From Candidatus Bathyarchaeota archaeon (GTDB lineage: Archaea > Thermoproteota > Bathyarchaeia > 40CM-2-53-6), in the NCBI GenBank assembly GCA_963845275.1, contig CAWJRR010000002.1, forward strand, positions 268,901 through 332,900: a DNA stretch of 64,000 bases. Direction: 5' to 3'. The position numbers and the translations under genes are program-made. The notes below the pieces were generated by a model that worked only from the letters and a program-made list of their open reading frames with translations, searched no databases and was not told the origin of the DNA. Position 1 is the stretch's first letter; each line of letters opens with the position of its first letter. Shown here in pieces: positions 19,077 to 38,543 of the stretch.

Positions 19077-19916
19077 TCACATCTCGACGTTTGGGGTCGA
19101 TGCTGCCTCTAAGGACGAAGCGTCAACCTTCATCGGTTTAGCCGACCCACTAATGCCCAATCGTCTACGCTGAACTATCTCAGCCATAATGCTGACTGCG
19201 ATCTCTTCAGGTGTTTCTGCGCCTATGTCGAGTCCAACGGGTGCATTCACCCTGCTTAATTGTTGCTGCGTAATGCCTTCCTGAAGTAGGATACGAAATG
19301 CTTGGAAAACTCGGCGTCTGCTGCCAATCAATCCGATATACCCTGCCTTTGTCTTGAGAGCCGTCCTTAGCGCTGGGAGGTCATCTTTGTGCCTCGTGAC
19401 AATTACGATGCACGTGTTTGAGGAGACGTGCATGTTCGGAAGGTTAGTTTCAGGAAAATCAGGAACGATAAGAGTCGATTCGGGGAATCTGTCTTTTGTG
19501 GCAAGCGGATCGATTACTGTAATTTCGAACCCTAAGAGTTGAGCCAGTTTTGCGATCGCAGAAGATAAGTGACCGCTTCCGATTATGATGAGTCTGGGAT
19601 TTGGCTCAGCGATTTCTATCGAGACGTCAATCTTTCCTCCACAATTCATTCCGACCCCTCCGAATTCTTCTTCTACCAAGTCGTAGGACTTTACAATTAC
19701 ACCCTTCACACCTTGTTTGAGCATAAGTATTGCCTCTTCCGCAACTTGCCCCTCGACGCATCCACCCCCGATGGTTCCGTAGGTTTTCTGATCTTTCGTG
19801 ATTATCATCTTAGCAATTTGTCTGGGAACTGATCCTCTGTAATTAACGATCGTCGCGACAGCGAATGTTTCTTGTTCGCGTATTAATTCGGCCATTCTCT
19901 CGTAGATGTTGCTCAT
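19077..19916 (-). CDS. xdhC: XdhC/CoxI-family Mo-cofactor insertion/maturation accessory protein
   Basis: N-terminal XdhC_CoxI-like segment (FAVATIVNYRGSVPRQ...GGGCVEG) and a Rossmann segment (LIIIGSGHLSSAIAKLAQLLGFEITVID). It starts 1 nt after the upstream Mo-subunit stop. Confidence 0.85.
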   Translation of the reverse strand: MSNIYERMAELIREQETFAVATIVNYRGSVPRQIAKMIITKDQKTYGTIGGGCVEGQVAEEAILMLKQGVKGVIVKSYDLVEEEFGGVGMNCGGKIDVSIEIAEPNPRLIIIGSGHLSSAIAKLAQLLGFEITVIDPLATKDRFPESTLIVPDFPETNLPNMHVSSNTCIVIVTRHKDDLPALRTALKTKAGYIGLIGSRRRVFQAFRILLQEGITQQQLSRVNAPVGLDIGAETPEEIAVSIMAEIVQRRRLGISGSAKPMKVDASSLEAASTPNVEM

Positions 19917-19917
19917 C

Positions 19918-22236
19918 TCAATTCCTCTTCCTCAAGTAGCTTAGCAGAACTCGATCAGGCGTTGCCGGGATTTCTGTTAATCTGACGCCGATAGCGTGAT
20001 CTATCGCGTTTACTATTGCGGCTGCGGGCAATACTATGGGTGGTTCTCCGATGACTTTAGCGCCGTATGGTCCTAGTTGGCCGGGGTACTCGACTATGAT
20101 GCTTTTGATTTCTGGAACATCCTTGGATGTTGGAATGTAGTAATCTGCAAGGTTCGGGTTAAGCACGGTTCCATCTTTGTGGATGAGTTCTTCCATGATC
20201 CCGTAACCTAGACCTTGAATTGTTCCCCCCTCTATCTGTCCTTCAACTGATAGAGGATTGATCGCTTTTCCGACGTCGTATGCTGCCACCATTCGGTTAA
20301 CTTGAACTTTACCAGTCTCAGTATCGATTTCAACTTCGGCCGTGACTGCGCCATACGTGTACTGGAGATAGGTGGTTCCTTGACTTGTTTCCGGGTCATA
20401 CTCACATTTTGGCGCATTAAACGTATCGTGCACTTTCAATTCCACTCCATTCTTGTACGCTGATTGTACGACCTCCAAGTATGAGACTGCGCACTCGGGT
20501 CTGTCTCTTACGTAGTATGATGCGTTCGACGTTTCAATCTCATCAACATTAGACGCTAACAGTTCTGCCGCAATTTCTTTGAGGCGTTGATGAAGTCTTC
20601 CTGCAACTAATTGAGCCGCACGTCCACCAACGGCAGTTGTCCTGGAAGCAACGGTAGGTCCTGCGTCGTTGCAGTAATCAGTGTCCGGTGGCTCCAATCT
20701 GAAGTAGGACATGGGAAGATTCATAGTCTCGGCGGCAATTTGCAGTAGTCCAGATGGTGCACCAGTCCCATACTCGGTTAAAGCGGTTCTGAATCTGATA
20801 GTTCCATCTTTGTCGATATTCATATGAGCCGCTACGTAGTCGCTCCCTTCAGGACCAAGACTATTACCATGATACATTATGGCGATGCCTATACCTTTCC
20901 GAATCGTTCCTGTTTGCTTGATGTATTCACTTCTCTTTCTCTGCCAATTTGATGCCTCCACTACTTTTTCAACGCATTCTTCGAGGCCACAACCTTCATC
21001 CACCACTTGACTGGTTGCGGTCAACGACCCTGGTTTCAGCATGTTAACGCGTCTGAACTCTAGAGGATCCATTCCAATTTTCTTCGCGATCTCTTCTACA
21101 TGTGATTCTGCGGCGAAATGTGATTGGGGGCCTCCGAAGCCACGGAATGAGCCTGCCATCGTATTGTTCGTGTAGACGCAGTACGAATCGCTCTTGACGT
21201 TCGGAATCTCATAGGGTCCGGTTGCATGGAATAATGCCCTGGTGACTACAAGTGGACCGAGAGACGCGTAAGCGCCTGTGTCGGCTATTAGTTCCGCGTT
21301 CCATGCAGTTAGTTTTCCGTTCTTCTTGACGCCGGCCTTCAACTTGATGATGAATGGATGGCGTTTCGTATGCCCTATGATGGACTCTTCTCTGGTGTAC
21401 GCAAGCGCCGTTGGTCTGCGCGTCTTGAGAGCAACGATTGCAGCCATCCCTAAGATATCTACAGGCATTTCGTCAGACTTGGGTCCAAATGCGCCTCCGG
21501 TAGCCGCTTGGATTACTCTGACTTGGTCAGCGCGCAGAGAGAGGATTTTGGCAACTCCTGTCTGTACGTGGAACGGGCTCTGCATCGAACCGACGCAAGT
21601 TACTGATCCATCAGGTTCAGGAACCACAAAACCAGTTTCAGGTTCCAACGGAACTGGTTCTTGAAATTGCGTCTTGTACGTTCCCTCGACTATGTAATCG
21701 GCTTGCTTGAATGCTGCTTCAACATCGCCTTTACGAAGCTTCAGGTGTTTCGCAATGTTTCCAGTCTTATGAATCATAGGCGCATCTGGTTTCAAGGCTT
21801 CTATGGGTGAGAACAGGGCAGGAAGATCTTCATACTCTATCTTTACGAGATTAACTGCTTCTTCCGCCACAGTCTGATCATGTGACGCGATGGCTGCTAT
21901 CGGTTCCCCGACGAATCTTACTTTGTCACTTGCGAGCAATGGCTTGTCTGGCAACATGGCCGCTGATTCATTTATTCCTGGGATATCTGCTGCAGTGATA
22001 ACCAAAACAACGCCGGGATATTGTCGTGCTTGTGAGACGTCCACTTTCCGTAACAACGCGTGGGCGTGAGTTGATCTTACGATCTTCAGATAAAGACAGT
22101 TTTCGGGCAGAATATCCATTGAATAGATGGGTTTCCCGAGGACTTTGTCAAGCGAGTCTACACGCTCCACAATCTTTCCAATGAGCACAGTTTGCGGAGG
22201 ATCGGAATGTTTACCCTGTCTATTCACCATTCTCAT
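19918..22236 (-). CDS. Xanthine dehydrogenase/aldehyde oxidase-family molybdopterin-binding large subunit (set 1)
   Basis: Motifs GGAFGPK and AGSFRGFGGPQ. The probable start is the ATG at 22236, forming an ATGA overlap with the upstream 2Fe-2S gene's stop. The track ORF extends to 22299. Confidence 0.9.
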   Translation of the reverse strand: MRMVNRQGKHSDPPQTVLIGKIVERVDSLDKVLGKPIYSMDILPENCLYLKIVRSTHAHALLRKVDVSQARQYPGVVLVITAADIPGINESAAMLPDKPLLASDKVRFVGEPIAAIASHDQTVAEEAVNLVKIEYEDLPALFSPIEALKPDAPMIHKTGNIAKHLKLRKGDVEAAFKQADYIVEGTYKTQFQEPVPLEPETGFVVPEPDGSVTCVGSMQSPFHVQTGVAKILSLRADQVRVIQAATGGAFGPKSDEMPVDILGMAAIVALKTRRPTALAYTREESIIGHTKRHPFIIKLKAGVKKNGKLTAWNAELIADTGAYASLGPLVVTRALFHATGPYEIPNVKSDSYCVYTNNTMAGSFRGFGGPQSHFAAESHVEEIAKKIGMDPLEFRRVNMLKPGSLTATSQVVDEGCGLEECVEKVVEASNWQRKRSEYIKQTGTIRKGIGIAIMYHGNSLGPEGSDYVAAHMNIDKDGTIRFRTALTEYGTGAPSGLLQIAAETMNLPMSYFRLEPPDTDYCNDAGPTVASRTTAVGGRAAQLVAGRLHQRLKEIAAELLASNVDEIETSNASYYVRDRPECAVSYLEVVQSAYKNGVELKVHDTFNAPKCEYDPETSQGTTYLQYTYGAVTAEVEIDTETGKVQVNRMVAAYDVGKAINPLSVEGQIEGGTIQGLGYGIMEELIHKDGTVLNPNLADYYIPTSKDVPEIKSIIVEYPGQLGPYGAKVIGEPPIVLPAAAIVNAIDHAIGVRLTEIPATPDRVLLSYLRKRN

Positions 22237-22709
22237 CGCTTCTTCATTTCTAGTGCGGCTGCCTTCACGGCTTTGACGATGCTTTGGTATCCAGTGCATC
22301 TACATAGGATGCCTCGAATGGCTTCTTTGATTTCTTCATCGGTAGGCGAAGGGTTATGGTCGAGAAGATTCTTCGACGCAAGAATCATTGCTGGGGTGCA
22401 GAAGCCGCACTGGGCTGCATTGAATTTGATGAATTCGCGTTGAAGAGGATGAAGATTCTTGGCTGTCCCAATTGCTTCGATTGTCGTTATTTTCTTGTTT
22501 CTTGCTTGAATCGCGAGGACAAGGCAGGAGTTTACGAGTTTTCCGTCCATGATGACGGCGCAGATTCCGCAATCTCCAGTACTACAGCCTTCTTTCGTTC
22601 CTTTCAATCCAAGTCTGTCTCTTAAAACATCCAGGAGGCGTTCGTGTGATTCCACAATCAACGCGTGGGCTTTTCCGTTGACGGTGAATTTTAGAAGGTG
22701 TTTAGACAA
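22233..22709 (-). CDS. [2Fe-2S]-binding small subunit (CoxS/XdhC-iron-sulfur type, set 1)
   Basis: Both cluster motifs are present: CSTGDCGICAV and QCGFCTPAM...CRCTGY. Confidence 0.9.
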   Translation of the reverse strand: MSKHLLKFTVNGKAHALIVESHERLLDVLRDRLGLKGTKEGCSTGDCGICAVIMDGKLVNSCLVLAIQARNKKITTIEAIGTAKNLHPLQREFIKFNAAQCGFCTPAMILASKNLLDHNPSPTDEEIKEAIRGILCRCTGYQSIVKAVKAAALEMKKR

Positions 22710-23586
22710 GTAACTTCACCCCTAGTCTCTCCGAACATTTGATTAGTGCACGCTTGAACAGCACGGGGCCAACGTTCTGTCTATACTCTCTGCTTGCTCT
22801 GAAGTCTGAAGTTAACTGGAGTTCGCTCTTTAATACCGTAATAGCGTTTTCAACTTTTTCTTTAGTAAGAGGATTTCCTCTGAGCTCGTCCTCAGTCTTC
22901 CTTGCTCTGTCAGGAATCTTGCCTGATACGCGGTTCATGGCGATTTTGATTTCCTCAATGCGTTTGTCTTCTTTACTTAATTTCAAGCAAACAGAACAGT
23001 TCAAGAATGCTATGATCAGGGAATTGCGCATTCCGATCTTTTCGAAAGCGCATGCTGACTGATCATCAAGTTCCTCAAACATCGTCTCGATGAGAATCTC
23101 GTTAGGAAGCATAGCGGTTTGTCTTTTGTCTGTAAGGAAATCGTCAAGACCAATCACTCGTTCTCCCTTCTTGGATCTCAATGTGACTCTTGCACCAAGC
23201 ACAAGCAGGACGGGTATCAGGTCTTCAGAGGATGATGCCGCGCAAATGTTGCCTCCCACTGTGGCCATGTTCACAATCGAGGGTCCACCGAATTTCGACG
23301 CGACGTCACGAAAAACATCGTAATGTTCTCCCAGGACCGGAGATGATACCAAATCTTGAATGGTAGTCAGGGCGCCAATTCGAATTTTCCCGTTGTCATC
23401 TCGTACGTAGTTGAATTCAGATAGGCCTGAAATGTCAACTAATACTCGGGCTTCAACTTGTCTTCGCTGTATGCGGTTAATCAGATCAGTTCCGTTCGCA
23501 ATAAGTTGCACGCCGGATTGATGATCGTCTAAGTAACTCAAGCAGTCGTTGAGGTTTTCTGGGACGTACATGTCGAATCTGTGCAA
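22702..23586 (-). CDS. FAD-binding medium subunit (CoxM/XdhB type, set 1)
   Basis: FAD-binding PCMH-type motifs IANGTDLINR and TVGGNI. 294 aa. Confidence 0.85.
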   Translation of the reverse strand: MHRFDMYVPENLNDCLSYLDDHQSGVQLIANGTDLINRIQRRQVEARVLVDISGLSEFNYVRDDNGKIRIGALTTIQDLVSSPVLGEHYDVFRDVASKFGGPSIVNMATVGGNICAASSSEDLIPVLLVLGARVTLRSKKGERVIGLDDFLTDKRQTAMLPNEILIETMFEELDDQSACAFEKIGMRNSLIIAFLNCSVCLKLSKEDKRIEEIKIAMNRVSGKIPDRARKTEDELRGNPLTKEKVENAITVLKSELQLTSDFRASREYRQNVGPVLFKRALIKCSERLGVKLLV

Positions 23587-23591
23587 GAATC

Positions 23592-23867
23592 TTAACCTCC
23601 TGCAGCTGGTGGGATCAATAGCACCAAGTCACTGTTGCTCAATTTCGTAGCCAAGTTTGGGGGGTTCTGAACTCTATTGTTCAAGTAGAATAGGATATAC
23701 TGACGAAGGCTACCTTTGGAATCGAAGAACAATCCCTTCAAACTACCCTGTCTATTAATGAGCGACTCAAGAACGTCGCTAAGGGTATTTGCTTCTATTT
23801 CCAGTTCGCTTTGCCCGACGGTTTCGCGCAGTTCATGGAAAAGTCGAACTCTTACCTTTGGAGGCAA
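23592..23867 (-). CDS. MoaD/ThiS-family ubiquitin-fold protein with a C-terminal di-glycine (SAMP-like)
   Basis: 91 aa ending ...SDLVLLIPPAAGG-stop. The C-terminal pattern resembles that of MoaD (...PPxxGG). Confidence 0.75.
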   Translation of the reverse strand: MPPKVRVRLFHELRETVGQSELEIEANTLSDVLESLINRQGSLKGLFFDSKGSLRQYILFYLNNRVQNPPNLATKLSNSDLVLLIPPAAGG

Positions 23868-23868
23868 C

Positions 23869-26160
23869 CTATAGTTTCACCTTACCACTCAGAGCGTCAT
23901 ATACTATTTCAGCGGTGGCGGGTAATGTGTAGATTCGTGTGCCTGTTGCATCATGGATTGCATTAGCAATTGCTGATCCGACTGGGATAATGCCGATTTC
24001 TCCCAGACCCTTTGCCCCGAATGGTCCAATTCTTTCGAGGGTTTCAACTGGATCAATCTCAATTTCAGGTATGTCAGCGATTGTGGGAATTATGTAGGTC
24101 GTGAAATTGTTAGTTCTCACAATGCCATTCTCGATCTGAGTGTCTTCGGTCAGGGCGAAGCCGATTCCTTGAACAATTGCGCCTTCACATTGACCCGTGT
24201 AGGATTGTGGATTGATGATTCTGCCGCATTCAGGTGACAGAAAGAACTTTAGAATTCTAGTCGCACCCGTCTGAGTATCGACTTCCACTTGGGCAACGGC
24301 GCTTGAGTACATGTAGGACATGTGCGGGATCTCCAATGTTCCTTGAATCGGCTTTTCGACTCGGGGTACGTTGTATCCTGCAACAACTTTCATTTCAGCA
24401 CCCGATCTTTGAAGATGTTGCGCAATCTCGGAGTAGCTGACCCGCTTCTTCGAATTCCTCGTTGACTTGACATGAGATTGTTTTGCCGATAGGTTTTGAG
24501 GATTCTCGTGGAGGATTTCCCCAGCTGCCTTGAGAAGCAGTTCAATCATTTTGGGAGCTGCAGCTAGTATAGCGTTTCCTCCTCGAACAAGCGCCATTGA
24601 TGCCGATGAAGTGCCCGAGTCTGGGGAGAGTTGTGTGTCGGCGCTGTCGATGTAAACTTCATCGATGTCACAGTTCAACGCTTCTGCTCCAATCTGGGCG
24701 TATGCGGTGGTGGCTCCTTGGCCTATCTCTGGGCAGCTTACCCCAACCACAAATTTCCCTGCTGGTTTGAGTTGAATCGACACGGAGGCGAAGTCTGGCA
24801 ATGCCCCGAAGCCGAAACCTTTCACTGCTGATGCGACTCCCACTCCTAACTTACACCAAGGCGCCGATGATTTTGACTTGTTCTTTCGCCTAGTCTTCCA
24901 AATTCTTGATCTTTCGGCTCTTAGGAGAGTTTCGTAGATGCCAACGCTTCCGTTGACTCTTAGCCCGAAGGCGCCCGTGTCGCCTTCGCGGAGAACGTTA
25001 ATCTTTCGTAAAGCAATCGGATCGATGCCTAGTCTTTCAGCGATGATGTCCATGTTCGTTTCCATGGCGAAGTTCACTTGAGGGGCGCCGAATCCTCTAA
25101 ATGCTCCCGCTACTCCATTATTCGTGTATACTGAATACGCATCAATGTCTACGTTCGGAATCTTGTATGGTCCACAACAGTTCTCTACTGCAACATCGAG
25201 GACGGTTGGACCGAGTGATGCATATGCTCCCGTATCGGCAATTATCTTGACCTTGTTTCCGAGCAGTCTTCCTTTCTTGTCCGCTGCTGTTTTAGTGATG
25301 ACCGTCATTGGGTGACGCTTCATGCCTGTAGTGCCCGATTCCTCTCGCGTCCACACCATCTTGACAGGGCGTTTCGTTTTCACCGCCAACATGGCTAGAT
25401 GGATTTGCACCGTGTTCTCTTCTTTTCCGCCGAAGGCGCCTCCCACTGGAGTCGATATGACCCTAATCTTCTCAGGAGGGATGCCTAAGGCTCTTGAGAT
25501 CTGCATTTGATCTCTGTAAGGTGATTGACCGCCTGCGTAAAGCACAATGTTGCCTTTCTCATCAAGCATTCCAAGGCCCGCTTCCGTCTCAAGATACATG
25601 TGCATCTGGCGCCCTGTGTGGAATGTGTTTTCGATTACGACCGCAGCGTCCCGAAACGCTTTGTCCACATTTCCAGTCTTGAATGATGCATGCCTCATTA
25701 GATTGCCCTGTGAGTGCACCTTGGGAGCGTCGGGCTTCATTGCTTCAATCGGGTCTGTAACTATCGGCAATGGTTCGTATTCAACTTCTACGAGTTGCGC
25801 GGCTTCTTCCGCAGTCTCCTTTGTCTCGGCTGCAATCACCGCGATGGCGTCGCCGAGGTATCTGACCTTGTCGTGGCAGAGGACAGGTTGATCAGGGGTT
25901 AGGATTCCGAATTTGTTCTCTCCTGTAACGTCCTTGTAAGTGAGGACTGCCGCAACTCCAGGTAGTGCTTCTGCTTTCGACGTATCAATCGTCTTGATCA
26001 ATGCATGTGGGTACTTACTTCGAACGACTTTCGCCCACAGCATGTTCGGCAATGCCATGTCTGAGAAGAATTTTGTTTCTCCTGTAACCTTCCCTAGTCC
26101 GTCCTTCCTGTCAATGGGTTTTCCGACCCATTTCAGTTTTCTTCTCTCAGTCTGAGGCAT
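23869..26160 (-). CDS. Xanthine dehydrogenase/aldehyde oxidase-family molybdopterin-binding large subunit (set 2)
   Basis: Motifs GGAFGGKEE and AGAFRGFGAPQ. The ATG at 26160 gives MPQTERRKLKWVGKPIDRKDG. The track ORF extends to a TTG at 26181, overlapping the upstream Ubl gene. Confidence 0.9.
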   Translation of the reverse strand: MPQTERRKLKWVGKPIDRKDGLGKVTGETKFFSDMALPNMLWAKVVRSKYPHALIKTIDTSKAEALPGVAAVLTYKDVTGENKFGILTPDQPVLCHDKVRYLGDAIAVIAAETKETAEEAAQLVEVEYEPLPIVTDPIEAMKPDAPKVHSQGNLMRHASFKTGNVDKAFRDAAVVIENTFHTGRQMHMYLETEAGLGMLDEKGNIVLYAGGQSPYRDQMQISRALGIPPEKIRVISTPVGGAFGGKEENTVQIHLAMLAVKTKRPVKMVWTREESGTTGMKRHPMTVITKTAADKKGRLLGNKVKIIADTGAYASLGPTVLDVAVENCCGPYKIPNVDIDAYSVYTNNGVAGAFRGFGAPQVNFAMETNMDIIAERLGIDPIALRKINVLREGDTGAFGLRVNGSVGIYETLLRAERSRIWKTRRKNKSKSSAPWCKLGVGVASAVKGFGFGALPDFASVSIQLKPAGKFVVGVSCPEIGQGATTAYAQIGAEALNCDIDEVYIDSADTQLSPDSGTSSASMALVRGGNAILAAAPKMIELLLKAAGEILHENPQNLSAKQSHVKSTRNSKKRVSYSEIAQHLQRSGAEMKVVAGYNVPRVEKPIQGTLEIPHMSYMYSSAVAQVEVDTQTGATRILKFFLSPECGRIINPQSYTGQCEGAIVQGIGFALTEDTQIENGIVRTNNFTTYIIPTIADIPEIEIDPVETLERIGPFGAKGLGEIGIIPVGSAIANAIHDATGTRIYTLPATAEIVYDALSGKVKL

Positions 26161-26167
26161 TTGTGTT

Positions 26168-26407
26168 CTATCCACCAGCAATCGGAGGCACTATGAGTAT
26201 TTCATCTCCGTCGTTAAGTTTCGATGTTGTGGTGAGTCTGATTCCTTCTCGCACAATGTAGACGTAGTTCTTGTTATCGAGAGGAATAGAGTTGAGCAAA
26301 TCTTCCACTGTTGCGTTCTTTGCGAGGTTCAGCGTGAGTTCGCGGCTTTCCAAAGCCATGGCTGGTGCGCCAAATACCTTCACTCTAACTCGCAGATTAT
26401 TGCTCAT
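26168..26407 (-). CDS. MoaD/ThiS-family ubiquitin-fold protein with a C-terminal di-glycine (SAMP-like), second copy
   Basis: 79 aa ending ...DGDEILIVPPIAGG-stop. There is an ATGA-type overlap with the upstream FAD-subunit stop. Confidence 0.8.
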   Translation of the reverse strand: MSNNLRVRVKVFGAPAMALESRELTLNLAKNATVEDLLNSIPLDNKNYVYIVREGIRLTTTSKLNDGDEILIVPPIAGG

Positions 26408-27279
26408 TTCGATGCTCCATTCTCAAATACTGCTTTGTGAAGTGCTTGATAGACTAGGGAACTCAGAACTTTCCTCCTATACTCTGCTGAGCCTCTGATA
26501 TCGGTGATAGGTGAGGCGTCTTGAGAGGCAAGTTTTGCGGCATCCTGTAATGATTTCTCAGTGAGGCACCTACCAATGAGAGCTTGCTCGCAGCTGTGGG
26601 CTCTCACGATAGTCGGAGCAACTGCACCCAAGGCGACTTTAACGTCACCGTACGAATCCTTGTGTTTCCCCCTGAGGATCACGGCCACGTCAACGATCGA
26701 GATCGCGTTAGCTTTTCGTAGACCTAGTTTGAGATAAGCACCTGCATCCTTCCTAGTGAGTCCATCAAACTGGATTTCTTCAATTAGTTCATCTGATTTT
26801 AAGGCAGTCTTGCGGTATTCGATGAAGAATCTCTCAATCGGAATTTCACGTCTATCAGACTGATTCCGTGTTACAATCGTTGCTCCAAGTGCGTAGAGGG
26901 GTGGTAAACAGTCTGCTGCTGGTGACGCGTTCCCGAGATTGCCGCCAATTGTGGCGCTGTTTTGCAGTTGAGTGGCCCCAATCTGTTTCGCTGCTTCAAG
27001 AAGAATCCAGGCCTGTCTCTTGATATGTCGTGACCTTATTATCTCGGTATAAGTGCTAAGGGCGCCGATGTGGATTCTACCGTACTTTTCTTTAATGAAT
27101 TTCAAATCTTTGACGGCAAGTATGTTTAGGAGTTTCTCTGTTTTGACTGCGCCGTCCCTTAGCTGGATTATAAGGTCTGATCCGCCTGCGATGATTCTGA
27201 TAGCGTTTTGATGCAGTTGTAGTAGCGTTAACGCTTCTTCTAATGTGTGAGGCGAGAGGACGTCAATTTCAGAACGCAT
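26404..27279 (-). CDS. FAD-binding medium subunit (CoxM/XdhB type, set 2)
   Basis: Motifs IAGGSDLIIQL and TIGGNLGN. ATG at 27279 (the track begins at a TTG at 27282). Confidence 0.85.
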   Translation of the reverse strand: MRSEIDVLSPHTLEEALTLLQLHQNAIRIIAGGSDLIIQLRDGAVKTEKLLNILAVKDLKFIKEKYGRIHIGALSTYTEIIRSRHIKRQAWILLEAAKQIGATQLQNSATIGGNLGNASPAADCLPPLYALGATIVTRNQSDRREIPIERFFIEYRKTALKSDELIEEIQFDGLTRKDAGAYLKLGLRKANAISIVDVAVILRGKHKDSYGDVKVALGAVAPTIVRAHSCEQALIGRCLTEKSLQDAAKLASQDASPITDIRGSAEYRRKVLSSLVYQALHKAVFENGASK

Positions 27280-27285
27280 CAAATA

Positions 27286-27761
27286 CTATGTTCTCCGCTT
27301 CTTGGCAGCGTCTTCGACAGCTGCGATTATCTTGGTGTAGCCTGTGCATCTACAGAGATTACCGGATAGTGCATTCTTGATGTCTGCTTTGGTTGGCTTC
27401 GGATTTTCCATGAGAGCGCGGACGCAGATACAATCATGCCAGGAATACAGTGGCCGCATTGTACTGCTCCATGATCAATGAATGCTTTCTGAACCGCATT
27501 CAGCTTTCCATCCTTTGCTAATCCTTCAGATGTTATGATTTCTGAATTTTCAGCCTGAGAAACGAGCACTAAACAAGAACAAACTGGCTGCCCGTTCATT
27601 ATCACGGTGCATGCCCCGCATTCTCCTTTAGCGCAGTCTTCTTTGGGGCCAGTGACCTGCAATTGATCACGAAGAACTTCGAGAAGTGTGTAAGCGGGCG
27701 GGCATCTTACTGTAATCGCTTCGCCGTTTAGCTTGAAACTTATCTTATGCTCCACGCGCAC
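27286..27761 (-). pseudogene. [2Fe-2S]-binding small subunit (set 2) with a single-base frame break. The C-terminal cluster motif is out of frame.
   Basis: The track ORF 27327..27761 has CAKGECGACTV and QCGHCIPGM, then reads ...SALSWKIRSQ... The adjacent frame encodes LMENPKPTKADIKNALSGNLCRCTGYTKIIAAVEDAAKKRRT-stop (TAG at 27286..27288). The break is at about 27412..27417. Confidence 0.7.
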
Positions 27762-27925
27762 TAGACCGCACTCCTGAATCTGGAATCTAGGATAGGATAG
27801 GCAAATATGTGTCTCTTAACCGTTGATCGAATTTGATCAATTCCTAACACATCATAAATTGCCTTCAGTTTAGAAGTTCCTCTCTTGAGAAAGGCTCTTT
27901 TCCATGATCACATTCTGGTTATGTT

Positions 27926-28003
27926 ATGTCGCGTGTGGCCCTTTACTTACAGGATAAGCCAACGGTTTTATCCTTTAGCTACACGGCGAGGCAGAACGAG
28001 TGA
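27926..28003 (+). other. Displaced 5' fragment of the LLM oxidoreductase gene (start codon plus 11 codons), fused to 14 element-derived codons
   Basis: ATG TCG CGT GTG GCC CTT TAC TTA CAG GAT AAG encodes [11 protein letters not shown], identical from RVALYLQDK to residues 9-17 of ORF 36057..37103. The fragment ORF ends at TGA 28001..28003, overlapping the integrase GTG (28000). Confidence 0.7.
27935..27959 (+). repeat. attL: left copy of the 25-bp perfect direct repeat GTGGCCCTTTACTTACAGGATAAGC
   Basis: Exact match to 36084..36108. The flanking bases differ on both sides. Confidence 0.9.
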
Positions 28004-29001
28004 ACGAGAAGCCTCGCATTAAGAAAACCTTTGACTGGGTTCAAAGGGAACCACTCATCAAGCCTTGGCATCGTAAGCTATCCTCAGGCTCTGAGAGAAC
28101 TGCAATTCATTACGCCTACAATCTGCAAAGACTGTTAGAGGAAAGAAAGCAGACACCAGAGCAGTTCCTTGAATACTGCAAATCAAAATACACTTCACCG
28201 AAAGCTACCGGCGAACTATGGGTTGAACTCAGGGACCAGGCTTACGAGTTCAAGCCTTCACAGGTGAAGATGATTGTCAAAGCGTTCCGCAGTTTCCTGA
28301 CGCATCACGGCGTATTCCTCCCAGCCGAAAGACTACCAACACCTAAACCAAACAACAAGAAAGAACTGCCTTATGATGAACTCAAAAAGATAGTAGCCCT
28401 GTGCCCTGAACCGTACAGAACAATCTTCACAATATTCACTTATGCACCGATGGGTGAGGTTTCATTCATTCAATGGAACAACAGCGATGACATGGCTCAG
28501 GACGTGCAGAGGCAGCTATCCAATAGGAAGGATTACGTGAAGGTTGTTCACCCACCAAGGAAGAATGCTCGTTTCCGCTTCTACTCGTTGATTCCCAAGA
28601 CAGTGATTCAGGATTACCTGGACCGTGGAGGAATCTTGCCTTTCAGGAATAGCAGAGGCTACCTAGTCAAAGACTACAATCTGCAGAAGGAGTGGAGAAG
28701 CATCAGGGAGAACCGAGCAGGATACAAGAAACACAAGGGCGTAGGTGTCCACGAAATTCGTGATGCATGGTTCACCTGGGCTGGTACACCTAGCGGTGGA
28801 AGACTGGATTGGGATTACAGGAAGTTTGCAATAGGCCACTCGCAATTCTCAGAACAGGAATACAACAAATTGTGGGAGCGTGAAGGAGAGATGGCGGACC
28901 AGCTAAGAGGAGCTTGGGCTGCAAGGGATTCAGACCCTGAGCTGGCGAAGAAGATTACTGAAATTGAGGAGTCCACGAAAGCATACTTGTATCTGGTCTG
29001 A
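28000..29001 (+). CDS. Tyrosine recombinase-like integrase
   Basis: The C-terminal half shows an HxxR box (GVHEIRDAWFTW), a GH (FAIGHS) and a candidate catalytic Tyr (SEQEYNKLW). There is an N-terminal SAM-like helical region. The first catalytic Arg was not confidently located. Confidence 0.6.
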   Translation: MNEKPRIKKTFDWVQREPLIKPWHRKLSSGSERTAIHYAYNLQRLLEERKQTPEQFLEYCKSKYTSPKATGELWVELRDQAYEFKPSQVKMIVKAFRSFLTHHGVFLPAERLPTPKPNNKKELPYDELKKIVALCPEPYRTIFTIFTYAPMGEVSFIQWNNSDDMAQDVQRQLSNRKDYVKVVHPPRKNARFRFYSLIPKTVIQDYLDRGGILPFRNSRGYLVKDYNLQKEWRSIRENRAGYKKHKGVGVHEIRDAWFTWAGTPSGGRLDWDYRKFAIGHSQFSEQEYNKLWEREGEMADQLRGAWAARDSDPELAKKITEIEESTKAYLYLV

Positions 29002-29294
29002 AACGGGTCAAAATAAGGCAATTAGCCTCTAATGGTAGTGAATTGAGGCGTTTACCCCCAGTCACCGCACCGTAAAGGGCATAGACGTATGGTGAGCTTG
29101 AAAAGCGTACTCACGAGACTAACCCCTATTGTGGCTAGCACTCGCCGGTAGGTCAACGTTGACACTGGCCTTATTGGAAACAGGGCTGATTGCATGACGT
29201 TTTAGGTCAATGCGCCAAGAATCAGGGCGTTTAAGGCCGAATATGCTCTTACTTGGGACGAGAGGTTGTGGACGTGCATAACGCTGCTGTGGTA

Positions 29295-29770
29295 CGCTAG
29301 GCTAGTTGGCCTCCTAGCGTGGTAGAGGCTGGGAGGAGGCCACTATACACTACAGAGGACAAGAGAGCACCTAGGTATGACACCTATCCTCTGCGTTACT
29401 TATGTACCTCCCACTCGGCGAAATGGCTTGGAGGCGTCTCCAGTCCCTACTTCCGAGTGGCCCCCGTCAGACCGTCATAGAGGAGGGGGCCAACTAGATG
29501 ATTCCAATACGTCCTATCAATGCTGTGAAGAGAGGGACCAACTGCAATTCATGTAACGGCCACACGAAGGTGGACCATTCACAGGGATTCATGGTAGGAC
29601 AACACAGCTTACGTTTAGTGGTCGGCGGCATACCCAGACAGAGGGCCGACCAACTAGCTCGATTTCATAATTCGCATACAAGGTATTTGATTTACTCGCA
29701 CCCAGCATTAAAGTCCGCTAAATCCACCTCTCCCACTTCTGCGGAGTTGAGAGGTCGGCCAACGATGACT
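29295..29770. repeat. Noncoding, hairpin-rich region with an iterated GGCCAAC/GACCAAC motif (iteron-like)
   Basis: GGCCAACTAG occurs at 29488..29497 (+) and 29302..29311 (-). GACCAACTG is at 29536..29544, GACCAACTAG at 29648..29657 and GGCCAACGAT at 29757..29766, with another GGCCAACGAT at 35537..35546. Hairpins: CGCTAGG/CCTAGCG (29295..29319) and TGGCCCCC/GGGGGCCA (29458..29493). Confidence 0.55.
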
Positions 29771-29837
29771 GAGCGTTCATTGCAATAGAATAGAAAAAAG
29801 GAGGGAGATTGGGAGTTGATGCCGTGTTTCGCTGATT

Positions 29838-30167
29838 TTACTTATTGCAAAAGTCGCCTTGGAAGTCAGAGACCTCGAAACTGTGCGGCGTAATGCCATC
29901 GCCACAGCCGCAAGCTGCGTCAGTACCTATCTTGCCTGAAAAACAGCCGTGGTGTGGTGGGTCGTGGCTTCCGCCATTTCCTCCGTCATGCACAAAGGGG
30001 CAGTTATTCGCAGTATAGTTCGGGTTGCTTGGTGACATTTGAGCGCAAGTGTTCGTGTTCCCGCCCGTACTTTGCGTAGGCTGCACTATGGGATTAGCGT
30101 AAGCGATACCGACAAGCGTTGAGGTTGCCAACATCAATCCCAAGAGGATTGAGAGAAGTGCTTTCAC
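29838..30167 (-). CDS. Small secreted Cys/Gly/His-rich protein (cassette 1)
   Basis: GTG start with GGAG 7 nt upstream. The leader MKALLSILLGLMLATSTLVGIAYANPIVQPTQS is paralogous to that of 30400..30624. The mature part has 7 Cys and a PPHHG motif. Confidence 0.65.
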   Translation of the reverse strand: MKALLSILLGLMLATSTLVGIAYANPIVQPTQSTGGNTNTCAQMSPSNPNYTANNCPFVHDGGNGGSHDPPHHGCFSGKIGTDAACGCGDGITPHSFEVSDFQGDFCNK

Positions 30168-30195
30168 CGAATATCTCCGCCGCCGAGTAATACAT

Positions 30196-30212
30196 ACGAC
30201 ATATATTTAGTT
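30196..30212 (-). promoter_or_regulatory. TATA-like promoter element of cassette 1 (minus-strand CTAAATATATG)
   Basis: It lies ~35 nt upstream of the GTG at 30167. The whole upstream block (TAAATATATGTCGTATGTATTACTC...GGAG) is conserved upstream of cassette 2. Confidence 0.4.
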
Positions 30213-30399
30213 TTCACCCACCATAATTCATTGTGAGTCGTCGAAAACACATATGCGTACTACCGCTATCGAGAGGCCCAGATTCTGAGATTCTAGCCTC
30301 TAATTGCGTCCTCGTTGGAGTCCACTTGTATTTTACTCACGAGTAGAACGAAGAGGAAGGGGGGTTGATGTCGTCTATTGTCAACTTTGATAGGCTTGC

Positions 30400-30624
30400 T
30401 CAGTCGTGGTGAGGGCCGTTTCTTGGAGGTTCACCAGGGCCACATGCGGTATAATAGTACGGCGGATAATAGTACGGCGGATATGGCGGATAAGGCGGAC
30501 AATAGTAGGGCGGATATGGCAGAGATTGCGCAGGTTGCATTGTGGGAGTAGCGTAAGCGATACCAACTAGCGTTGAGGTTACAAAAATCAATCCCAGTAG
30601 GATTGAGAAAAGTGCTGTCTTCAC
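30400..30624 (-). CDS. Small secreted Pro/Tyr-rich peptide (cassette 2)
   Basis: The homologous GTG start at 30624 gives (M)KTALFSILLGLIFVTSTLVGIAYATPTMQPAQS. The core is LPYPPYYCPPYPPYPPYYYPPYYYTACGPGEPPRNGPHHD. The track ORF extends to 30660. Confidence 0.6.
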   Translation of the reverse strand: MKTALFSILLGLIFVTSTLVGIAYATPTMQPAQSLPYPPYYCPPYPPYPPYYYPPYYYTACGPGEPPRNGPHHD

Positions 30625-30653
30625 TAAATATGCCTCCTCCATGACTAGTACAT

Positions 30654-30670
30654 ACGGCATATATTAGGCA
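30654..30670 (-). promoter_or_regulatory. TATA-like promoter element of cassette 2 (minus-strand CCTAATATATG)
   Basis: Same spacing (~35 nt) to the GTG at 30624 as in cassette 1. CTAATATATGCCGTATGTACTAGTC aligns with the cassette-1 upstream block. Confidence 0.4.
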
Positions 30671-30910
30671 TGTCGCATGTTACATCAATGTCACACGCAT
30701 GATACATATCTATACCTACAGGCGTGAATAGGTTCTGCCAATCATCCAGTCAACCCTACTTTCTCTTTCTGAAAAGTCTGACCCGTCCCTATTGCGGAGC
30801 AAAGGTTAGCGCTGAGAAATCAACCTCGTACTCGGAGAGTCGCATTCCCAAAAGAGGAACCTCACGTTTCTAATCGATTTGCTTGACCATTTCGTGTTGC
30901 CGTTACGTGA

Positions 30911-31099
30911 TTGTCGACTGCCGAGCTTTTGCATTCCATGAACTGTCCAAAATGTCATGAACCACAGCTTTCACTCCTAGGCCGTAGCTTACGATTCATG
31001 AATGAAGGAACGGAAGTGGTCTTGGATTACCTATGTCCAAGATGCCAGACACGCTGGCAACGCTGGGGAGAAACTGGACTCAAGATTGAAGAAGTCTAG
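30911..31099 (+). CDS. Small zinc-ribbon protein
   Basis: Two CxxC pairs: CPKCHEPQ ... CPRCQTRW. 62 aa. An alternative ATG start lies at 30938. Confidence 0.5.
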   Translation: MSTAELLHSMNCPKCHEPQLSLLGRSLRFMNEGTEVVLDYLCPRCQTRWQRWGETGLKIEEV

Positions 31100-31194
31100 C
31101 CACTTTCTTTCTTGAAAACATCTCCGCTAATCGTCTTGGCCCGAAGCGTAGCGCAGGGTCATAAAACTAGAACATAATCAGAACGTTACAACAA

Positions 31195-31404
31195 TCAATT
31201 CAATGATTGCCATGAGTCCAATTTAGATTGTCCAGTAGAACCCTTTCCTTTGCGCAAACTCAATAGTACTATTACGGAAACAGCGATGACGGTAACGAGG
31301 GCTATAGCCACTTCATGATATGTGCTACCCGTGGAGATGGGAGCTATTTGCTGAGTTATGTAGCCTGTCTGCGTTAAGGAAGATGTCGTCGTATAGGTGG
31401 GCAT
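31195..31404 (-). CDS. Small single-pass membrane protein (hypothetical)
   Basis: Central TM VAIALVTVIAVSVIVLLSL followed by a basic stretch RKGKG. Confidence 0.4.
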   Translation of the reverse strand: MPTYTTTSSLTQTGYITQQIAPISTGSTYHEVAIALVTVIAVSVIVLLSLRKGKGSTGQSKLDSWQSLN

Positions 31405-31479
31405 GGATTGTTCGTATTCTCTTGGGCGCTTCAGTTATCGTTGACATGTAGGGAACAGAGCAGCCTGAAGTGAGATAGT

Positions 31480-32199
31480 TTGAAAGAGCCTCCGCCAGCT
31501 TGTAGGACGTGCGGTCGACCCATGCAATTACTAGACGAGGGGGACCAGAAGTGGTACTGCTACAGGGACGATGAGATATTCTATTCTAGGGAGGCCAAGT
31601 GGGGAACGCCATTAGGGGAAGCTGAAGCTCCCGACTCTTGGACTTGTCTATGCGGACGCAAGAGGAGCGCCAGTTATTCCTTTGCAAAGCGTATTGAATG
31701 CATAGACTGCGAAGAACCGCATTACATCGGAGTACGAATCGACTCTACAGTTGTGCAGGAAGTCAAGAGGCGATTTCGAGCCAATATGAGAGGCGCTTAC
31801 GGCTACCCAGATAAAAAAATCGATAAGATTATTGCATCAGCTGAGGCTGCGTCAAGTCCGACGAGGGTAGTCGCATATCTTGAAAAAACGGACGCTGCTA
31901 TCTTTGCCTCCAAGGCGCCTGGATGGTTTGGGATTGGACTAGGGTCATTCGCTGCGATGGCATTGAATGCCATAGAGGTAGCCCGACTTAAGCCTCCAGT
32001 TCCCCTCTTTGGCACACTTACCCAAGAACTAGAGCACCTGACGTCGAAGCGTTTGGGAGAAACGACTGCAAGACTAGGTACAGGAGTAATAGTACAGGAG
32101 GTTGAACCAAAAGCTTCTACGAAGTTCTGCCGTGAATGTGGAGAGAGAATTCCAAGAGATAGTGTCTTCTGCGAAGAGTGTGGGGCCAAAATAGCCTAA
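31480..32199 (+). CDS. Double zinc-ribbon protein, paralog A (N-terminal CxxC...YCY module plus C-terminal zinc ribbon)
   Basis: N-terminus is ACRTCGRPMQLLDEGDQKWYCYRDDEIFYSREAKW and C-terminus is KFCRECGERIPRDSVFCEECGAKIA. Both ends are paralogous to 33110..33691. Confidence 0.65.
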   Translation: MKEPPPACRTCGRPMQLLDEGDQKWYCYRDDEIFYSREAKWGTPLGEAEAPDSWTCLCGRKRSASYSFAKRIECIDCEEPHYIGVRIDSTVVQEVKRRFRANMRGAYGYPDKKIDKIIASAEAASSPTRVVAYLEKTDAAIFASKAPGWFGIGLGSFAAMALNAIEVARLKPPVPLFGTLTQELEHLTSKRLGETTARLGTGVIVQEVEPKASTKFCRECGERIPRDSVFCEECGAKIA

Positions 32200-32375
32200 C
32201 TGGACGGAGTCCAATACACAATATCAAAAATGCTAAACCGTTCTTGATTAGACAAAACCGAGGACTTTGCTAGCTTTCTGAGTGTCGTAGTGCGTTGTAA
32301 TATAATTTGTATATTGACAAGTGTTAAACAGAGCTCCTACAAAGCTCAAGGCATGTAATGCCTTCGTGATTTGAA

Positions 32376-32648
32376 TTGACCCAACGGTCGAAGGTCCAAT
32401 ATCGGACGCTCCATCGAACGGCAGTTATTTCTGGGCTGCTTTTCGTTCTCATATTATTCGGTATGGGCATTATCTCAGGTGCTATCCAAGGGTCCACTAC
32501 ACTGCTTCTGCCATATGACCAAATTGATGCGTACAATGCTCTTGCTCAAAAAACTGACCAGCTGTTAGCACCTTACGAAAGTCTGAAGAACACCGTAGTT
32601 ATACTAGATATTGCGGCACTCGCAGTAGTAATTGCCTCAGACTCTTAA
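32376..32648 (+). CDS. Small membrane protein (hypothetical); possibly the N-terminal part of 32632..33123
   Basis: Two hydrophobic segments. It overlaps the next ORF by 17 nt in a different frame. TTG start. Confidence 0.35.
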   Translation: MTQRSKVQYRTLHRTAVISGLLFVLILFGMGIISGAIQGSTTLLLPYDQIDAYNALAQKTDQLLAPYESLKNTVVILDIAALAVVIASDS

Positions 32649-33123
32649 TTCTTATGCGAAACGAACTTTCCACAAAGTGACAGTATTTGTGGCACCGTTT
32701 GTTGTGACAGCCGACATACTCTCTGAAGGTTGGTACCGTTCCCTTACCCAACAGGCTTTGACTCAGCTTTCGTCAGTGATGGATACAGGCACATTGAATA
32801 CAGCATTACAAGTTCAGCAGAAGTTCAATGCAGCTTATGGATTCTGGGGTTCTCCTGAATACGACACATTAGGAGTTATTTTGTCATGGATTGGAGTGGG
32901 ATTTCTAATTGCTGCAGTTCTTACGATGAAGATTGTAACCGTGAGCGAAACCACGGTAAAGCAAGAAGACGCCATTCCAATTATCGGTCCTGTGAAGATT
33001 ACGAACGACCAAGCTCCAGTCGCCCCACCCTTGAAATATTGTCGTTATTGTGGAGCCAAGATACCTAGACAGAGTAAGTTTTGTGAGGAATGCGGAGCCA
33101 CTCTAAGCCTTGAAACTAAGTGA
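32632..33123 (+). CDS. Membrane protein with a C-terminal zinc ribbon, paralog C
   Basis: TM segment LGVILSWIGVGFLIAAVLTM. The C-terminus KYCRYCGAKIPRQSKFCEECGATL matches the ribbons of 31480 and 33110. Confidence 0.6.
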   Translation: MPQTLNSYAKRTFHKVTVFVAPFVVTADILSEGWYRSLTQQALTQLSSVMDTGTLNTALQVQQKFNAAYGFWGSPEYDTLGVILSWIGVGFLIAAVLTMKIVTVSETTVKQEDAIPIIGPVKITNDQAPVAPPLKYCRYCGAKIPRQSKFCEECGATLSLETK

Positions 33124-33691
33124 TGTGAAACGGAAACCAGTCTGCAAGTTATGCGGCAAACAAATGACGCTGCTGGACGAAGAGAGAGGGTACTGCTACA
33201 AGGATGACCTAATTTATTACGTGAAGGAACTCCGATGGAGTGACGATGGTCCTGCTACCTCTGCTACCAAAACTGAAGCAGGTCCTCCAGCCCCACCTGT
33301 CGGAACAATCGACGTATGGGTTCCTATCGTATTGCTGCTGGCGATGTTGCTGCTTTCATACCGGATTCCTTTTGCGGGAGTCGGTCTATTCATTGTAGCG
33401 ACACTGTACGTTCATTACAGCTCCAAGAAATTCAAGATTGGCGGTGGCCGTGCGTTCGTCACGCTTCTTTTTGCCATAGTAGGCTTGCCACTCTTTGCCT
33501 ACGACCTGCATAAGCTCAAGCAGCATCAGAGGTCGCCCGTTTCACAACCACTCGCTAGTGCGGGACCCATGCCTACGGTCGCAAAACCAGCACAGGTCAC
33601 GGTTCCTGAAGCAAAGTTCTGCCGAGAATGCGGTGCTAAAATACCAAGAGACAGCATGTTCTGCGAGGAATGCGGAACCAAACTAAGCTAA
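33110..33691 (+). CDS. Double zinc-ribbon membrane protein, paralog B
   Basis: N-terminus VCKLCGKQMTLLDEERGYCYKDDLIYYVKELRW, three TM segments, and C-terminus KFCRECGAKIPRDSMFCEECGTKLS. Confidence 0.65.
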   Translation: MKLSDVKRKPVCKLCGKQMTLLDEERGYCYKDDLIYYVKELRWSDDGPATSATKTEAGPPAPPVGTIDVWVPIVLLLAMLLLSYRIPFAGVGLFIVATLYVHYSSKKFKIGGGRAFVTLLFAIVGLPLFAYDLHKLKQHQRSPVSQPLASAGPMPTVAKPAQVTVPEAKFCRECGAKIPRDSMFCEECGTKLS

Positions 33692-34784: not shown

Positions 34785-34805
34785 CGATGCAAGGTAGAAA
34801 TCAGT

Positions 34806-35027: not shown

Positions 35028-35041
35028 TAGGTTCTGGAGAC

Positions 35042-37103: not shown

Positions 37104-37134
37104 TCTAACTGAATCAACGAGGGTTAGACAGGTC

Positions 37135-38541: not shown

Positions 38542-38543
38542 TT

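Follow-up and report, generated by a model that had tools for sequence, protein, structure and literature searches.

Enzymes of the xanthine oxidase (XO) family specifically need a terminal sulfido ligand on molybdenum. The delivery of this ligand is known only for a few bacteria, in which XdhC acts together with a cysteine desulfurase, and for eukaryotes, which use ABA3/MOCOS, and we found no description of the donor in archaea in the literature. Ubiquitin-like proteins (Ubls) of the MoaD family carry a C-terminal Gly-Gly, and one of them, SAMP1 of H. volcanii, is a functional MoaD. In surveys of Ubl gene neighbourhoods, the tungsten enzyme AOR is the only partner in a MoaD linkage of the kind considered here (Iyer, Burroughs & Aravind 2006; Makarova & Koonin 2010). 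In T. kodakarensis, deletion of the AOR-adjacent UblC (TK1065) brought AOR to ~54% and abolished FOR activity, with GOR unaffected (Hidese et al. 2024, PMC11323500). Here we describe an operon at 19077-27761 (minus strand) of a 64,000-nt stretch of DNA from a soil-dwelling Candidatus Bathyarchaeota archaeon (contig CAWJRR010000002.1, positions 268,901 to 332,900), hereafter the window. It encodes two heterotrimers of the xanthine dehydrogenase (XDH) family, one XdhC and two MoaD/SAMP1-type Gly-Gly beta-grasp proteins, Ubl1 and Ubl2, the genes of which are embedded among those of the structural subunits. The literature on MoaD with XdhC or molybdenum hydroxylases and on Bathyarchaeia XDH yielded no description of Ubl genes in xdh/cox-type operons, and a 2026 review of the sulfido ligand mentions neither MoaD, nor a thiocarboxylate, nor a ubiquitin-like protein. 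This agrees with a first-pass annotation of the same DNA, the author of which knew of no described role for such genes.

The nine minus-strand open reading frames (ORFs) that the first-pass annotation had assigned to this unit were checked against Pfam, and all are present in the proposed order with the expected domains. Coordinates are positions in the window, and in the direction of transcription the features are:

27762-27999, no strand: intergenic 238 nt upstream of the operon, the presumed promoter region, common with the divergent ORF 28000-29001
27286-27761 (as-assembled ORF 27327-27761), minus strand: 2Fe-2S(2), CoxS/XdhC-type small subunit of set 2, frameshifted (Pfam Fer2_2 and Fer2; nucleotide alignment with loci L004 and L005)
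26404-27282, minus strand: FAD(2), CoxM/XdhB-type FAD-binding subunit, 292 aa (PF00941 E=3.5e-43, PF03450 E=2.7e-26)
26168-26407, minus strand: Ubl2, MoaD/ThiS-family beta-grasp protein, 79 aa, ending ...LIVPPIAGG (PF02597 E=2.2e-7)
23869-26181, minus strand: Mo(2), molybdopterin-binding subunit, 770 aa (PF01315, PF02738, PF20256)
23592-23867, minus strand: Ubl1, archaeal MoaD/SAMP1-type beta-grasp protein, 91 aa, ending ...LLIPPAAGG (PF02597 E=1.4e-10)
22702-23586, minus strand: FAD(1), FAD-binding subunit of set 1, 294 aa (PF00941, PF03450)
22233-22709, minus strand: 2Fe-2S(1) of set 1, 158 aa, intact (PF01799 E=1.8e-30, PF00111)
19918-22236 (likely start; ORF as called 19918-22299), minus strand: Mo(1), molybdopterin-binding subunit of set 1, 772 aa (Pfam)
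19077-19916, minus strand: XdhC-family chaperone for insertion and sulfuration of the molybdenum cofactor (Moco), 279 aa (PF02625 70.8 bits, PF13478 132.8 bits)

Both sets contain all the Mo, FAD and 2Fe-2S (FeS) domains expected of the XDH/CoxL family, with E values from 1e-14 to 1e-82. These are Ald_Xan_dh_C, MoCoBD_1 and MoCoBD_2 in the Mo subunits, FAD_binding_5 and CO_deh_flav_C in the FAD subunits, and Fer2/Fer2_2 in the FeS subunits. The last gene encodes both the XdhC_CoxI N-terminal domain and the XdhC_C Rossmann domain of an XdhC/CoxI chaperone. Genes in the operon are separated by gaps of 1-6 nt or overlap by 4-14 nt. The Ubl2 gene shares 4 nt with the end of FAD2 and 14 nt with the beginning of Mo2, the Ubl1 gene lies 1 nt after the Mo2 stop and 5 nt ahead of the FAD1 start, and the XdhC gene begins 1 nt past the Mo1 stop. 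The GTG start of the leading gene, 2Fe-2S(2), is preceded by AGGAG at 9 nt. The earlier claim that every junction is an overlap or a gap of at most 7 nt is borne out for these overlaps and small gaps, whereas the 2Fe-2S(2)/FAD(2) junction departs from it as assembled and conforms only once a frameshift is corrected. Among the ~57 window ORFs scanned there is no MoaE, MoeB/UbaA or cysteine desulfurase, as had been stated from the first inspection, and no JAMM protein. The window also contains no tRNA gene and no match to an Rfam family, the Moco riboswitch included.

The frameshift lies in 2Fe-2S(2). In the assembly, its ORF breaks off at 27327, with the CRCTGY cluster motif missing, and the proper C-terminus (...LMENPKPTKADIKNALSGNLCRCTGYTKIIAAVEDAAKKRRT) runs on in another frame to a TAG at 27286-27288. 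Nucleotide alignment to L004 and L005 places a single missing base between 27415 and 27414. Orthologues in relatives are intact, at 156-158 aa. The essential FEN1 gene is also split in this window (XPG_N at 58405-58857, XPG_I at 58799-59437). This second split gene, and the finding of the deletion in the window alone, make an indel in the assembly the likelier explanation of the 2Fe-2S(2) frameshift, and real pseudogenisation of set 2 is, on the same grounds, less likely. For Mo(1), the most likely start is Met22 at 22236, which creates an ATGA overlap with 2Fe-2S(1) and a protein of 772 aa, as in the L004 orthologue.

The two small proteins, named 'MoaD/ThiS family protein' in databases, are genuine MoaD/SAMP-type Ubls, as the first reading had supposed. 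Both exceed the curated PF02597 cut-off of 22.5 bits (Ubl1 41.9, Ubl2 31.8). Ubl1 also passes the archaeal MoaD model TIGR01687 with 56.1 bits against a cut-off of 49.5, whereas Ubl2, at 31.3, fails it, and neither reaches the 60 bits of the SAMP1 equivalog NF041918 (48.9 and 27.9 bits, respectively). Indeed, Ubl2 stays below every NCBIfam cut-off, those of the MoaD, SAMP and ThiS models included. In sequence comparisons with the PDB, Ubl1 matches SAMP1 (2l52, E=1e-7) as well as MoaD-related entries, and the matches of Ubl2 are weak. AlphaFold2 (AF2) models of both proteins adopt a beta-grasp fold (pLDDT 90.0 for Ubl1 and 79.8 for Ubl2), and the top Foldseek matches of the two models comprise SAMP1, SAMP3, mycobacterial and human MoaD, and CysO, with TM scores of 0.70-0.84. 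For Ubl1 the best of these is SAMP1 (TM 0.84), with MoaD from molybdopterin (MPT) synthase complexes among its structural neighbours, and for Ubl2 the best are mycobacterial MoaD (6jbz_B), SAMP3 and SAMP1. Ubl1 and Ubl2 are homologous but distant (hhalign 97.7%, 28% identity), as are the subunits of the two sets, which share 36% (Mo), 30% (FAD) and 43% (FeS) identity. The database relatives (more than 300), the syntenic loci (more than 100) and the confident beta-grasp models rule out that either gene is a chance or mis-called ORF.

The Gly-Gly terminus is present in 48 of 49 database relatives of Ubl1 and in all of the best 120 among the 255 of Ubl2. It is likewise kept in all of the ~100 loci compared, with exceptions that add one or two variable residues after it, rarely 15. 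Such additions include R, CI, HR and KR, and one copy has an apparent 1-nt deletion. In a divergent group of loci (clade B; L082-L104 and L020), Ubl2 often ends in GG followed by ED, EN, DH, RR, DS or RA, and in a few copies Ubl1 is extended by 15 residues, into the start of FAD1. Residues placed after the Gly-Gly in this manner are typical of Ubl precursors that need trimming, and the clade B tails imply either that an unlinked protease processes the C-terminus or that the extension is tolerated. A motif census of 35 loci found no cysteine in either Ubl in 34 of 35 copies, and since the Ubls have no cysteines, the C-terminus would be their sole reactive group. Judged from these counts, the C-terminal Gly-Gly is under strong selection.

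The linkage of the Ubl genes to XDH-family genes is conserved. A Ubl2 alignment, used to scan a single genome from each GTDB species, gave 17 loci, to which exact look-ups added three, and in all 20 the gene order is FeS2-FAD2-Ubl2-Mo2-Ubl1-FAD1-FeS1-Mo1, usually followed by XdhC and then by Band7/NfeD on the opposite strand. The closest of these, L004 (peat metagenome-assembled genome (MAG) SPRUCE 253), shares 94% nucleotide identity with the window across the operon, and FAD(2) orthologues at the same position are 57-89% identical. Database relatives are named Candidatus Bathyarchaeia. A metagenome scan with a narrow Ubl1 alignment gave 80 loci, and XDH-family genes flank the Ubl in 79 of them, down to about 40% identity. 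Together with the constant gene order in the 20 loci, this goes well beyond chance. Among the metagenome loci is a second, deeply diverged clade (clade B) with ~42-47% identity in the Ubls and 58-60% in the Mo subunits and with the same nine-gene layout. The proposal that each enzyme set has one operon-embedded Ubl thus describes the relatives as well as the window, and the linkage, the absence of which from related genomes had been named in advance as evidence against a dedicated role, is instead widely kept. The pairwise distances of subunits and Ubls co-vary (raw r 0.86-0.98), with the Ubls about as constrained as the FAD subunits, and since all of them co-diverge, the unit is inherited as a block. 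Three loci (L005, L012 and L019) carry the typical Bathyarchaeia operon, with 63-81% Ubl2 identity and the same synteny, in MAGs labelled Methylomirabilota, Acidoferrum and Acidiferrales; these contigs are probably archaeal and mis-binned.

An exhaustive HMM search with a Ubl1 profile returned 1482 matches, only 36 of them below 1e-10. A profile search started from distant Ubl1-like sequences drifted into general archaeal MoaD/SAMP1, and contexts were read for some clades only (those of P0171, P0175 and P0177 were left out, and P0176 lies on a 907-bp contig). Two groups of single-set operons were found, one with the order FAD-Ubl-FeS-Mo (P0327 and P0182) and one with Ubl-FAD-FeS-Mo (P0361 and P0345). 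In both, the enzyme is orthologous to set 1 (Mo1 ~52% identity), the contigs have 50-62% GC and archaeal neighbours, and the Ubl is present with no XdhC within 8 kb. Thus, among the closest Ubl1 relatives with readable context, which span four lineages and three gene orders, every one is XDH-linked, and the linkage is established in at least four archaeal lineages. The next group out, a 'MoaD family' of Nitrososphaerota, adjoins a pyridoxal phosphate (PLP)-dependent enzyme of the PALP family and MoaB, in the manner of CysO and CysM. A clustering of the window Ubls with generic MoaD, which the first-pass annotation had given, in combination with the lack of any other moaD in the genome, as grounds for dropping its proposal, was therefore not seen, and the context of the nearest relatives, compared at the locus level, does not support a generic housekeeping MoaD. 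Because these nearest relatives sit in XDH-type operons, gene context indicates that the Ubl1-type proteins are a distinct, XDH-dedicated subfamily. Because set-1-orthologous single-set operons elsewhere in archaea carry a Ubl1-like gene, the same comparison indicates that the Ubl-XDH linkage is older than the duplication that gave rise to the double operon. The PALP neighbours of the next relatives out, which recall the pairing of CysO with CysM, suggest descent from a thiocarboxylate carrier. L036 (1-1471) is the one metagenome locus in which the Ubl has no XDH genes beside it. Its Ubl1-like gene (70% identity, ending PPAGGG) comes after a PALP gene of the threonine/cysteine-synthase-like kind, with a weak FAD-subunit-like ORF 1.2 kb further downstream, and the locus may represent a stage in evolution between CysO-like and XDH-linked Ubls.

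The Mo subunits retain the catalytic apparatus of hydroxylases. In an alignment to bovine XO (3sr6_C) combined with the motif census in 35 loci, Mo1 has the GE motif (E1261 equivalent) and FRGFG (R880 equivalent) in 35/35 loci, and Mo2 has FRGFG in 35/35 and GE in 34/35, one copy giving no pattern match. At the position of bovine E802, Mo1 has Ser in all 35 loci and Mo2 has Glu or Asp, the window Mo2 keeping the E802 equivalent, and the motif GGAFGPKSDE is found in every Mo1. Both Mo subunits score best against PucD-type XDH, Mo(2) with 646 bits and a PucD cut-off of 784, and the scores against the PucD, XdhA, 4-hydroxybenzoyl-CoA reductase (4-HBCR) and CODH equivalogs all lie below cut-off. 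Among PDB entries, Mo(1) matches 4-hydroxybenzoyl-CoA reductase and bovine XDH, and the best match of Mo(2) is nicotinate dehydrogenase (3hrd_A). Because the neighbouring genes, given below, fit anaerobic purine catabolism, we propose from this context that the two enzymes are most likely paralogous XDH-family N-heterocycle (purine) hydroxylases that act in sequence. The XdhC of the window scores 107.8 bits against TIGR02964, below the cut-off of 161.6. The slot that follows Mo1 can hold either of two XdhC types that are not orthologous: L004, L007, L020 and L077 have the window type (56-97% identity), and most other loci have a second one, only 32-39% identical to that of the window (e.g., L002, 13975-14802). 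In clade B (L020) the XdhC gene lies apart, on the opposite strand. The Ubl is linked more tightly than XdhC to the structural genes.

As a reading of these data we favour, tentatively, that the Ubls are enzyme-dedicated thiocarboxylate sulfur carriers for Moco maturation and that they most likely serve the terminal sulfido ligand. From the genomic context we propose that the C-terminal Gly-Gly would be adenylated by an E1-type enzyme (UbaA/MoeB) encoded elsewhere and the adenylate converted to a thiocarboxylate. The sulfur of this thiocarboxylate would then mature the Mo cofactor of the cognate enzyme, with terminal Mo=S as the likeliest target. It could be handed over on XdhC-bound Moco or directly, with the tail of the Ubl docked on its cognate Mo subunit, and would take the place of the cysteine-desulfurase persulfide that bacteria use. 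The sulfido ligand is favoured as the target because two divergent Ubls would be superfluous for a shared MoaE, because no MoaE is linked and because XO-family enzymes need this ligand. The retention in both Mo subunits of the catalytic Glu and Arg of sulfido-dependent hydroxylases, as read from the alignment, supports the proposal. Enzyme-specific docking would fit better than a generic MoaD role because a divergent Ubl pair stands beside a divergent Mo pair with a single XdhC, and because the single-set lineages hold a Ubl with no XdhC nearby. By analogy, the T. kodakarensis UblC is a precedent for an enzyme-specific Ubl.

Several points weigh against this proposal. No case of a Ubl thiocarboxylate that supplies a sulfido ligand was found in the literature, the established donors being cysteine-desulfurase persulfides that act with XdhC, FdhD or ABA3 (PMC13653126, PMC12140954), and MoaD-family proteins beside pterin enzymes have so far been read as carriers for MPT synthesis. 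The mirror-tree partial correlations between cognate Ubl and Mo subunits (r of 0.36 and 0.26, as against 0.09-0.15 with the FAD subunits) are weak and comparable to background. In all four orders in which it occurs (FAD2-Ubl2, Ubl1-FAD1, FAD-Ubl-FeS and Ubl-FAD-FeS; window, L021, L022, L105, L107), the Ubl gene is next to that of the FAD subunit, and neither the sulfido model nor any other mechanism proposed here accounts for this. Finally, the absence of MoaE, ThiF/MoeB, JAMM, rhodanese and cysteine desulfurase from the recurrent or listed flanking families of ~38 loci refers in part to a listing of all but 9 of 34 families, a gap that itself counts against the proposal.

The Ubls might instead be private small subunits of MPT synthase, thiocarboxylated by MoeB/UbaA, that give the two dithiolene sulfurs together with the housekeeping MoaE; co-expression with the hydroxylases would serve to increase or direct the cofactor supply. 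That Ubl1 passes TIGR01687, that MoaD from MPT-synthase complexes is among the structural neighbours and that SAMP1 is known to function as MoaD all agree with this, as do the interpretation of MoaD-AOR neighbourhoods as MPT synthesis and the ascription of the enzyme-specific effects of the T. kodakarensis Ubls to tungsten-cofactor synthesis. It is nonetheless an unlikely explanation, for two 28%-identical paralogues, each fixed to one set through deep divergence, would be needless for one MoaE. In addition, Ubl2 falls below the MoaD, SAMP and ThiS cut-offs, and the subfamily is seen with XDH-type genes only and not with other pterin enzymes. Neither the window ORFs nor the Pfam-annotated related loci contain MoaE, ThiF/MoeB, JAMM, rhodanese or a cysteine desulfurase, so that no annotated locus has MoaE or MoeB, unlike many AOR-MoaD clusters, and gene context in the window and in the annotated or scanned flanks of relatives gives no sign of a MoaD-MoaE partnership. 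A role unrelated to sulfur, as a stoichiometric accessory subunit or assembly factor or as a SAMP-type isopeptide modifier that controls assembly, activity or turnover, would account for the translational coupling of the Ubl genes within the structural genes, which implies near 1:1 expression of Ubl and subunits. It would also suit the provision of one specific Ubl for each enzyme set, the constant adjacency to the FAD-subunit gene and a linkage tighter than that of XdhC. The modifier SAMP1 is the best structural match of Ubl1, all three T. kodakarensis Ubls also make conjugates, and a Cdc48 ATPase is encoded in the window. Such a role is doubtful, however, given that no E1, E2-like or JAMM gene is linked in the window or the listed flanks, that none of 150 representatives has a Ubl fused to an XDH subunit and that the closest non-XDH relatives lie in sulfur-carrier (PALP) contexts. 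Moreover, we know of no solved XDH-family structure with a beta-grasp accessory subunit, and the PDB match lists for the Mo subunits name the usual subunits only.

Two further possibilities would bring the Ubl into the catalytic cycle itself. In one, the Ubl tail would enter the substrate funnel of the cognate Mo subunit, either to install and continually repair Mo=S in situ or to thiolate a purine-like heterocycle. The former would amount to an E1-dependent, desulfurase-independent cycle of sulfuration and repair, new for prokaryotes, and the latter to an XDH-family counterpart of the metallopterin ergothioneine synthase; taken jointly, we regard them as improbable. In the other, the Ubl would be a true co-substrate, with the thiocarboxylate reloading the Mo centre with sulfur while the enzymes thiolate an N-heterocycle (C-H to C-SH), in analogy to ThiS-ThiG or CysO-CysM. 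To our knowledge, whenever a characterised Ubl sulfur carrier has its gene next to that of an enzyme, it donates sulfur to that enzyme as a co-substrate, and the stoichiometric embedding in the operon and the invariant Ser of Mo1 at the position of the substrate-binding Glu802 would be in keeping with this. Metallopterin-dependent formation of a C-S bond on an imidazole ring does exist and provides a precedent, in an ergothioneine synthase that has its own fused cysteine desulfurase (PMC9516567). We nevertheless hold the co-substrate idea to be highly improbable, as adenine deaminase, amidohydrolases, carbamate kinase and OTCase-like neighbours fit catabolic purine oxidation, the operon includes an XdhC chaperone, the hydroxylase Glu and Arg are kept in both Mo subunits and neither a thiolated purine product nor a pathway for one is known here.

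The genes upstream of the operon, identified by Pfam, are:

36057-37103, plus strand: luciferase-like oxidoreductase
37135-38055, minus strand: TIM-barrel protein
38589-39203, plus strand: MarR regulator
39355-41151, minus strand: adenine deaminase
41538-42929, plus strand: amidohydrolase
43021-44049, minus strand: OTCase-like protein
44175-45137, plus strand: carbamate kinase
45178-46248, plus strand: OTCase-like protein

These purine and nitrogen catabolism genes (36057-46248) are syntenic with the operon in relatives (L001-L020). The conserved neighbours are the divergent luciferase-like oxidoreductase, adenine deaminase and amidohydrolase, of which the first two lie directly upstream of the operon in most relatives. 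The window and L007 have in addition two OTCase-like carbamoyltransferases and carbamate kinase, L007 holding the full set. The gene content suggests an ATP-yielding purine fermentation in soil and peat Bathyarchaeia. Of the neighbours of the double operon, the divergently transcribed luciferase-like oxidoreductase, possibly F420-dependent, is the best conserved (76-97% identity), and an F420 ligase gene is found close to the single-set FAD-Ubl-FeS-Mo operons (L021, 2649-3311; L107, 372-1088); the hydroxylases may thus be linked to F420. Between the operon and the luciferase-like gene is a variable island (28210-35995), 7.8 kb in the window and 5.1 kb in L004, with collinearity on both sides. 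The window version holds genes for three zinc-ribbon proteins (31480-33691), an unannotated ORF of 333 aa (28000-29001) and a number of small ORFs, with no tRNA gene nearby. Further on, at 48145-53138, a gene for 2,4-diaminopentanoate dehydrogenase adjoins genes for an HdrD-like CCG/4Fe-4S membrane protein and EtfB/EtfA, which could form an ornithine-fermentation and electron-transfer module beside the purine island.

A Gly-Gly Ubl subfamily that is hard-wired in XDH-type operons offers a testable candidate for a thiocarboxylate-based route of Moco sulfuration, and if the sulfur role should fail, these proteins would represent a new kind of enzyme-specific Ubl partner. In practice, making active archaeal XDH-family enzymes in a foreign host may require that the matching Ubl, together with an E1, be co-expressed. 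For Bathyarchaeia of soil and peat, the locus is in addition a marker of what appears to be a purine-fermentation island.

Comparison with described systems shows where the operon is conventional and where it is not. As hydroxylases, the encoded enzymes have the same Mo/FAD/2Fe-2S architecture as B. subtilis PucABCDE, E. coli XdhABC and E. barkeri nicotinate dehydrogenase, their best matches are PucD, bovine XDH and nicotinate dehydrogenase, and their neighbourhood is purine-catabolic, but the equivalog scores lie below cut-off and the window has two tandem sets with embedded Ubl genes. We know of no such embedded Ubl genes in bacterial purine hydroxylase operons. The systems in which XdhC acts with a cysteine desulfurase (R. 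capsulatus XdhC/NifS4, E. coli PaoD/IscS and the eukaryotic ABA3/MOCOS) serve the same enzyme family, XdhC also closes the operon in the window, and the proposed outcome, conversion of Mo=O to Mo=S, would be the same. In those systems, however, the donor is a persulfide on a PLP-dependent cysteine desulfurase, whereas the window has no linked desulfurase and a Ubl instead. CysO-CysM and other PALP-linked carriers resemble the nearest non-XDH relatives of Ubl1 (Nitrososphaerota, L036), which adjoin PALP, and CysO is among the structural matches, but the partner of CysO is a PLP sulfhydrylase and that of the window Ubls a molybdenum hydroxylase. With the small subunits of the MoaD-MoaE MPT synthases (E. 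coli MoaD, human MOCS2A, H. volcanii SAMP1) the Ubls share the beta-grasp fold and a PPxxGG tail, and Ubl1 the TIGR01687 model. The window Ubls differ in that they are found without a nearby MoaE, that Ubl2 is under all MoaD cut-offs and that the subfamily is confined to XDH-type operons. Finally, the MoaD-AOR neighbourhoods, the nearest described counterpart, likewise place a Gly-Gly MoaD-family Ubl beside a pterin oxidoreductase and away from the main Moco operon. AOR is a bis-pterin W enzyme, whereas the partner in the window belongs to an unrelated family, the mono-pterin Mo enzymes of the XDH/CoxL type with FAD and 2Fe-2S subunits. MoeB, MoaE or MoaA are frequent members of AOR clusters, but none of them was seen at the XDH loci, and the window Ubls lie between structural subunit genes, two per operon, with XdhC present. 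As its partners are of the XDH family, the operon is not itself a MoaD-AOR neighbourhood, and the resemblance lies only in the logic of the arrangement. It extends the MoaD-AOR theme to a second, unrelated family of pterin enzymes, and because the linkage is now seen in this second family, private Ubls for individual Mo and W enzymes are suggested as a general archaeal strategy.

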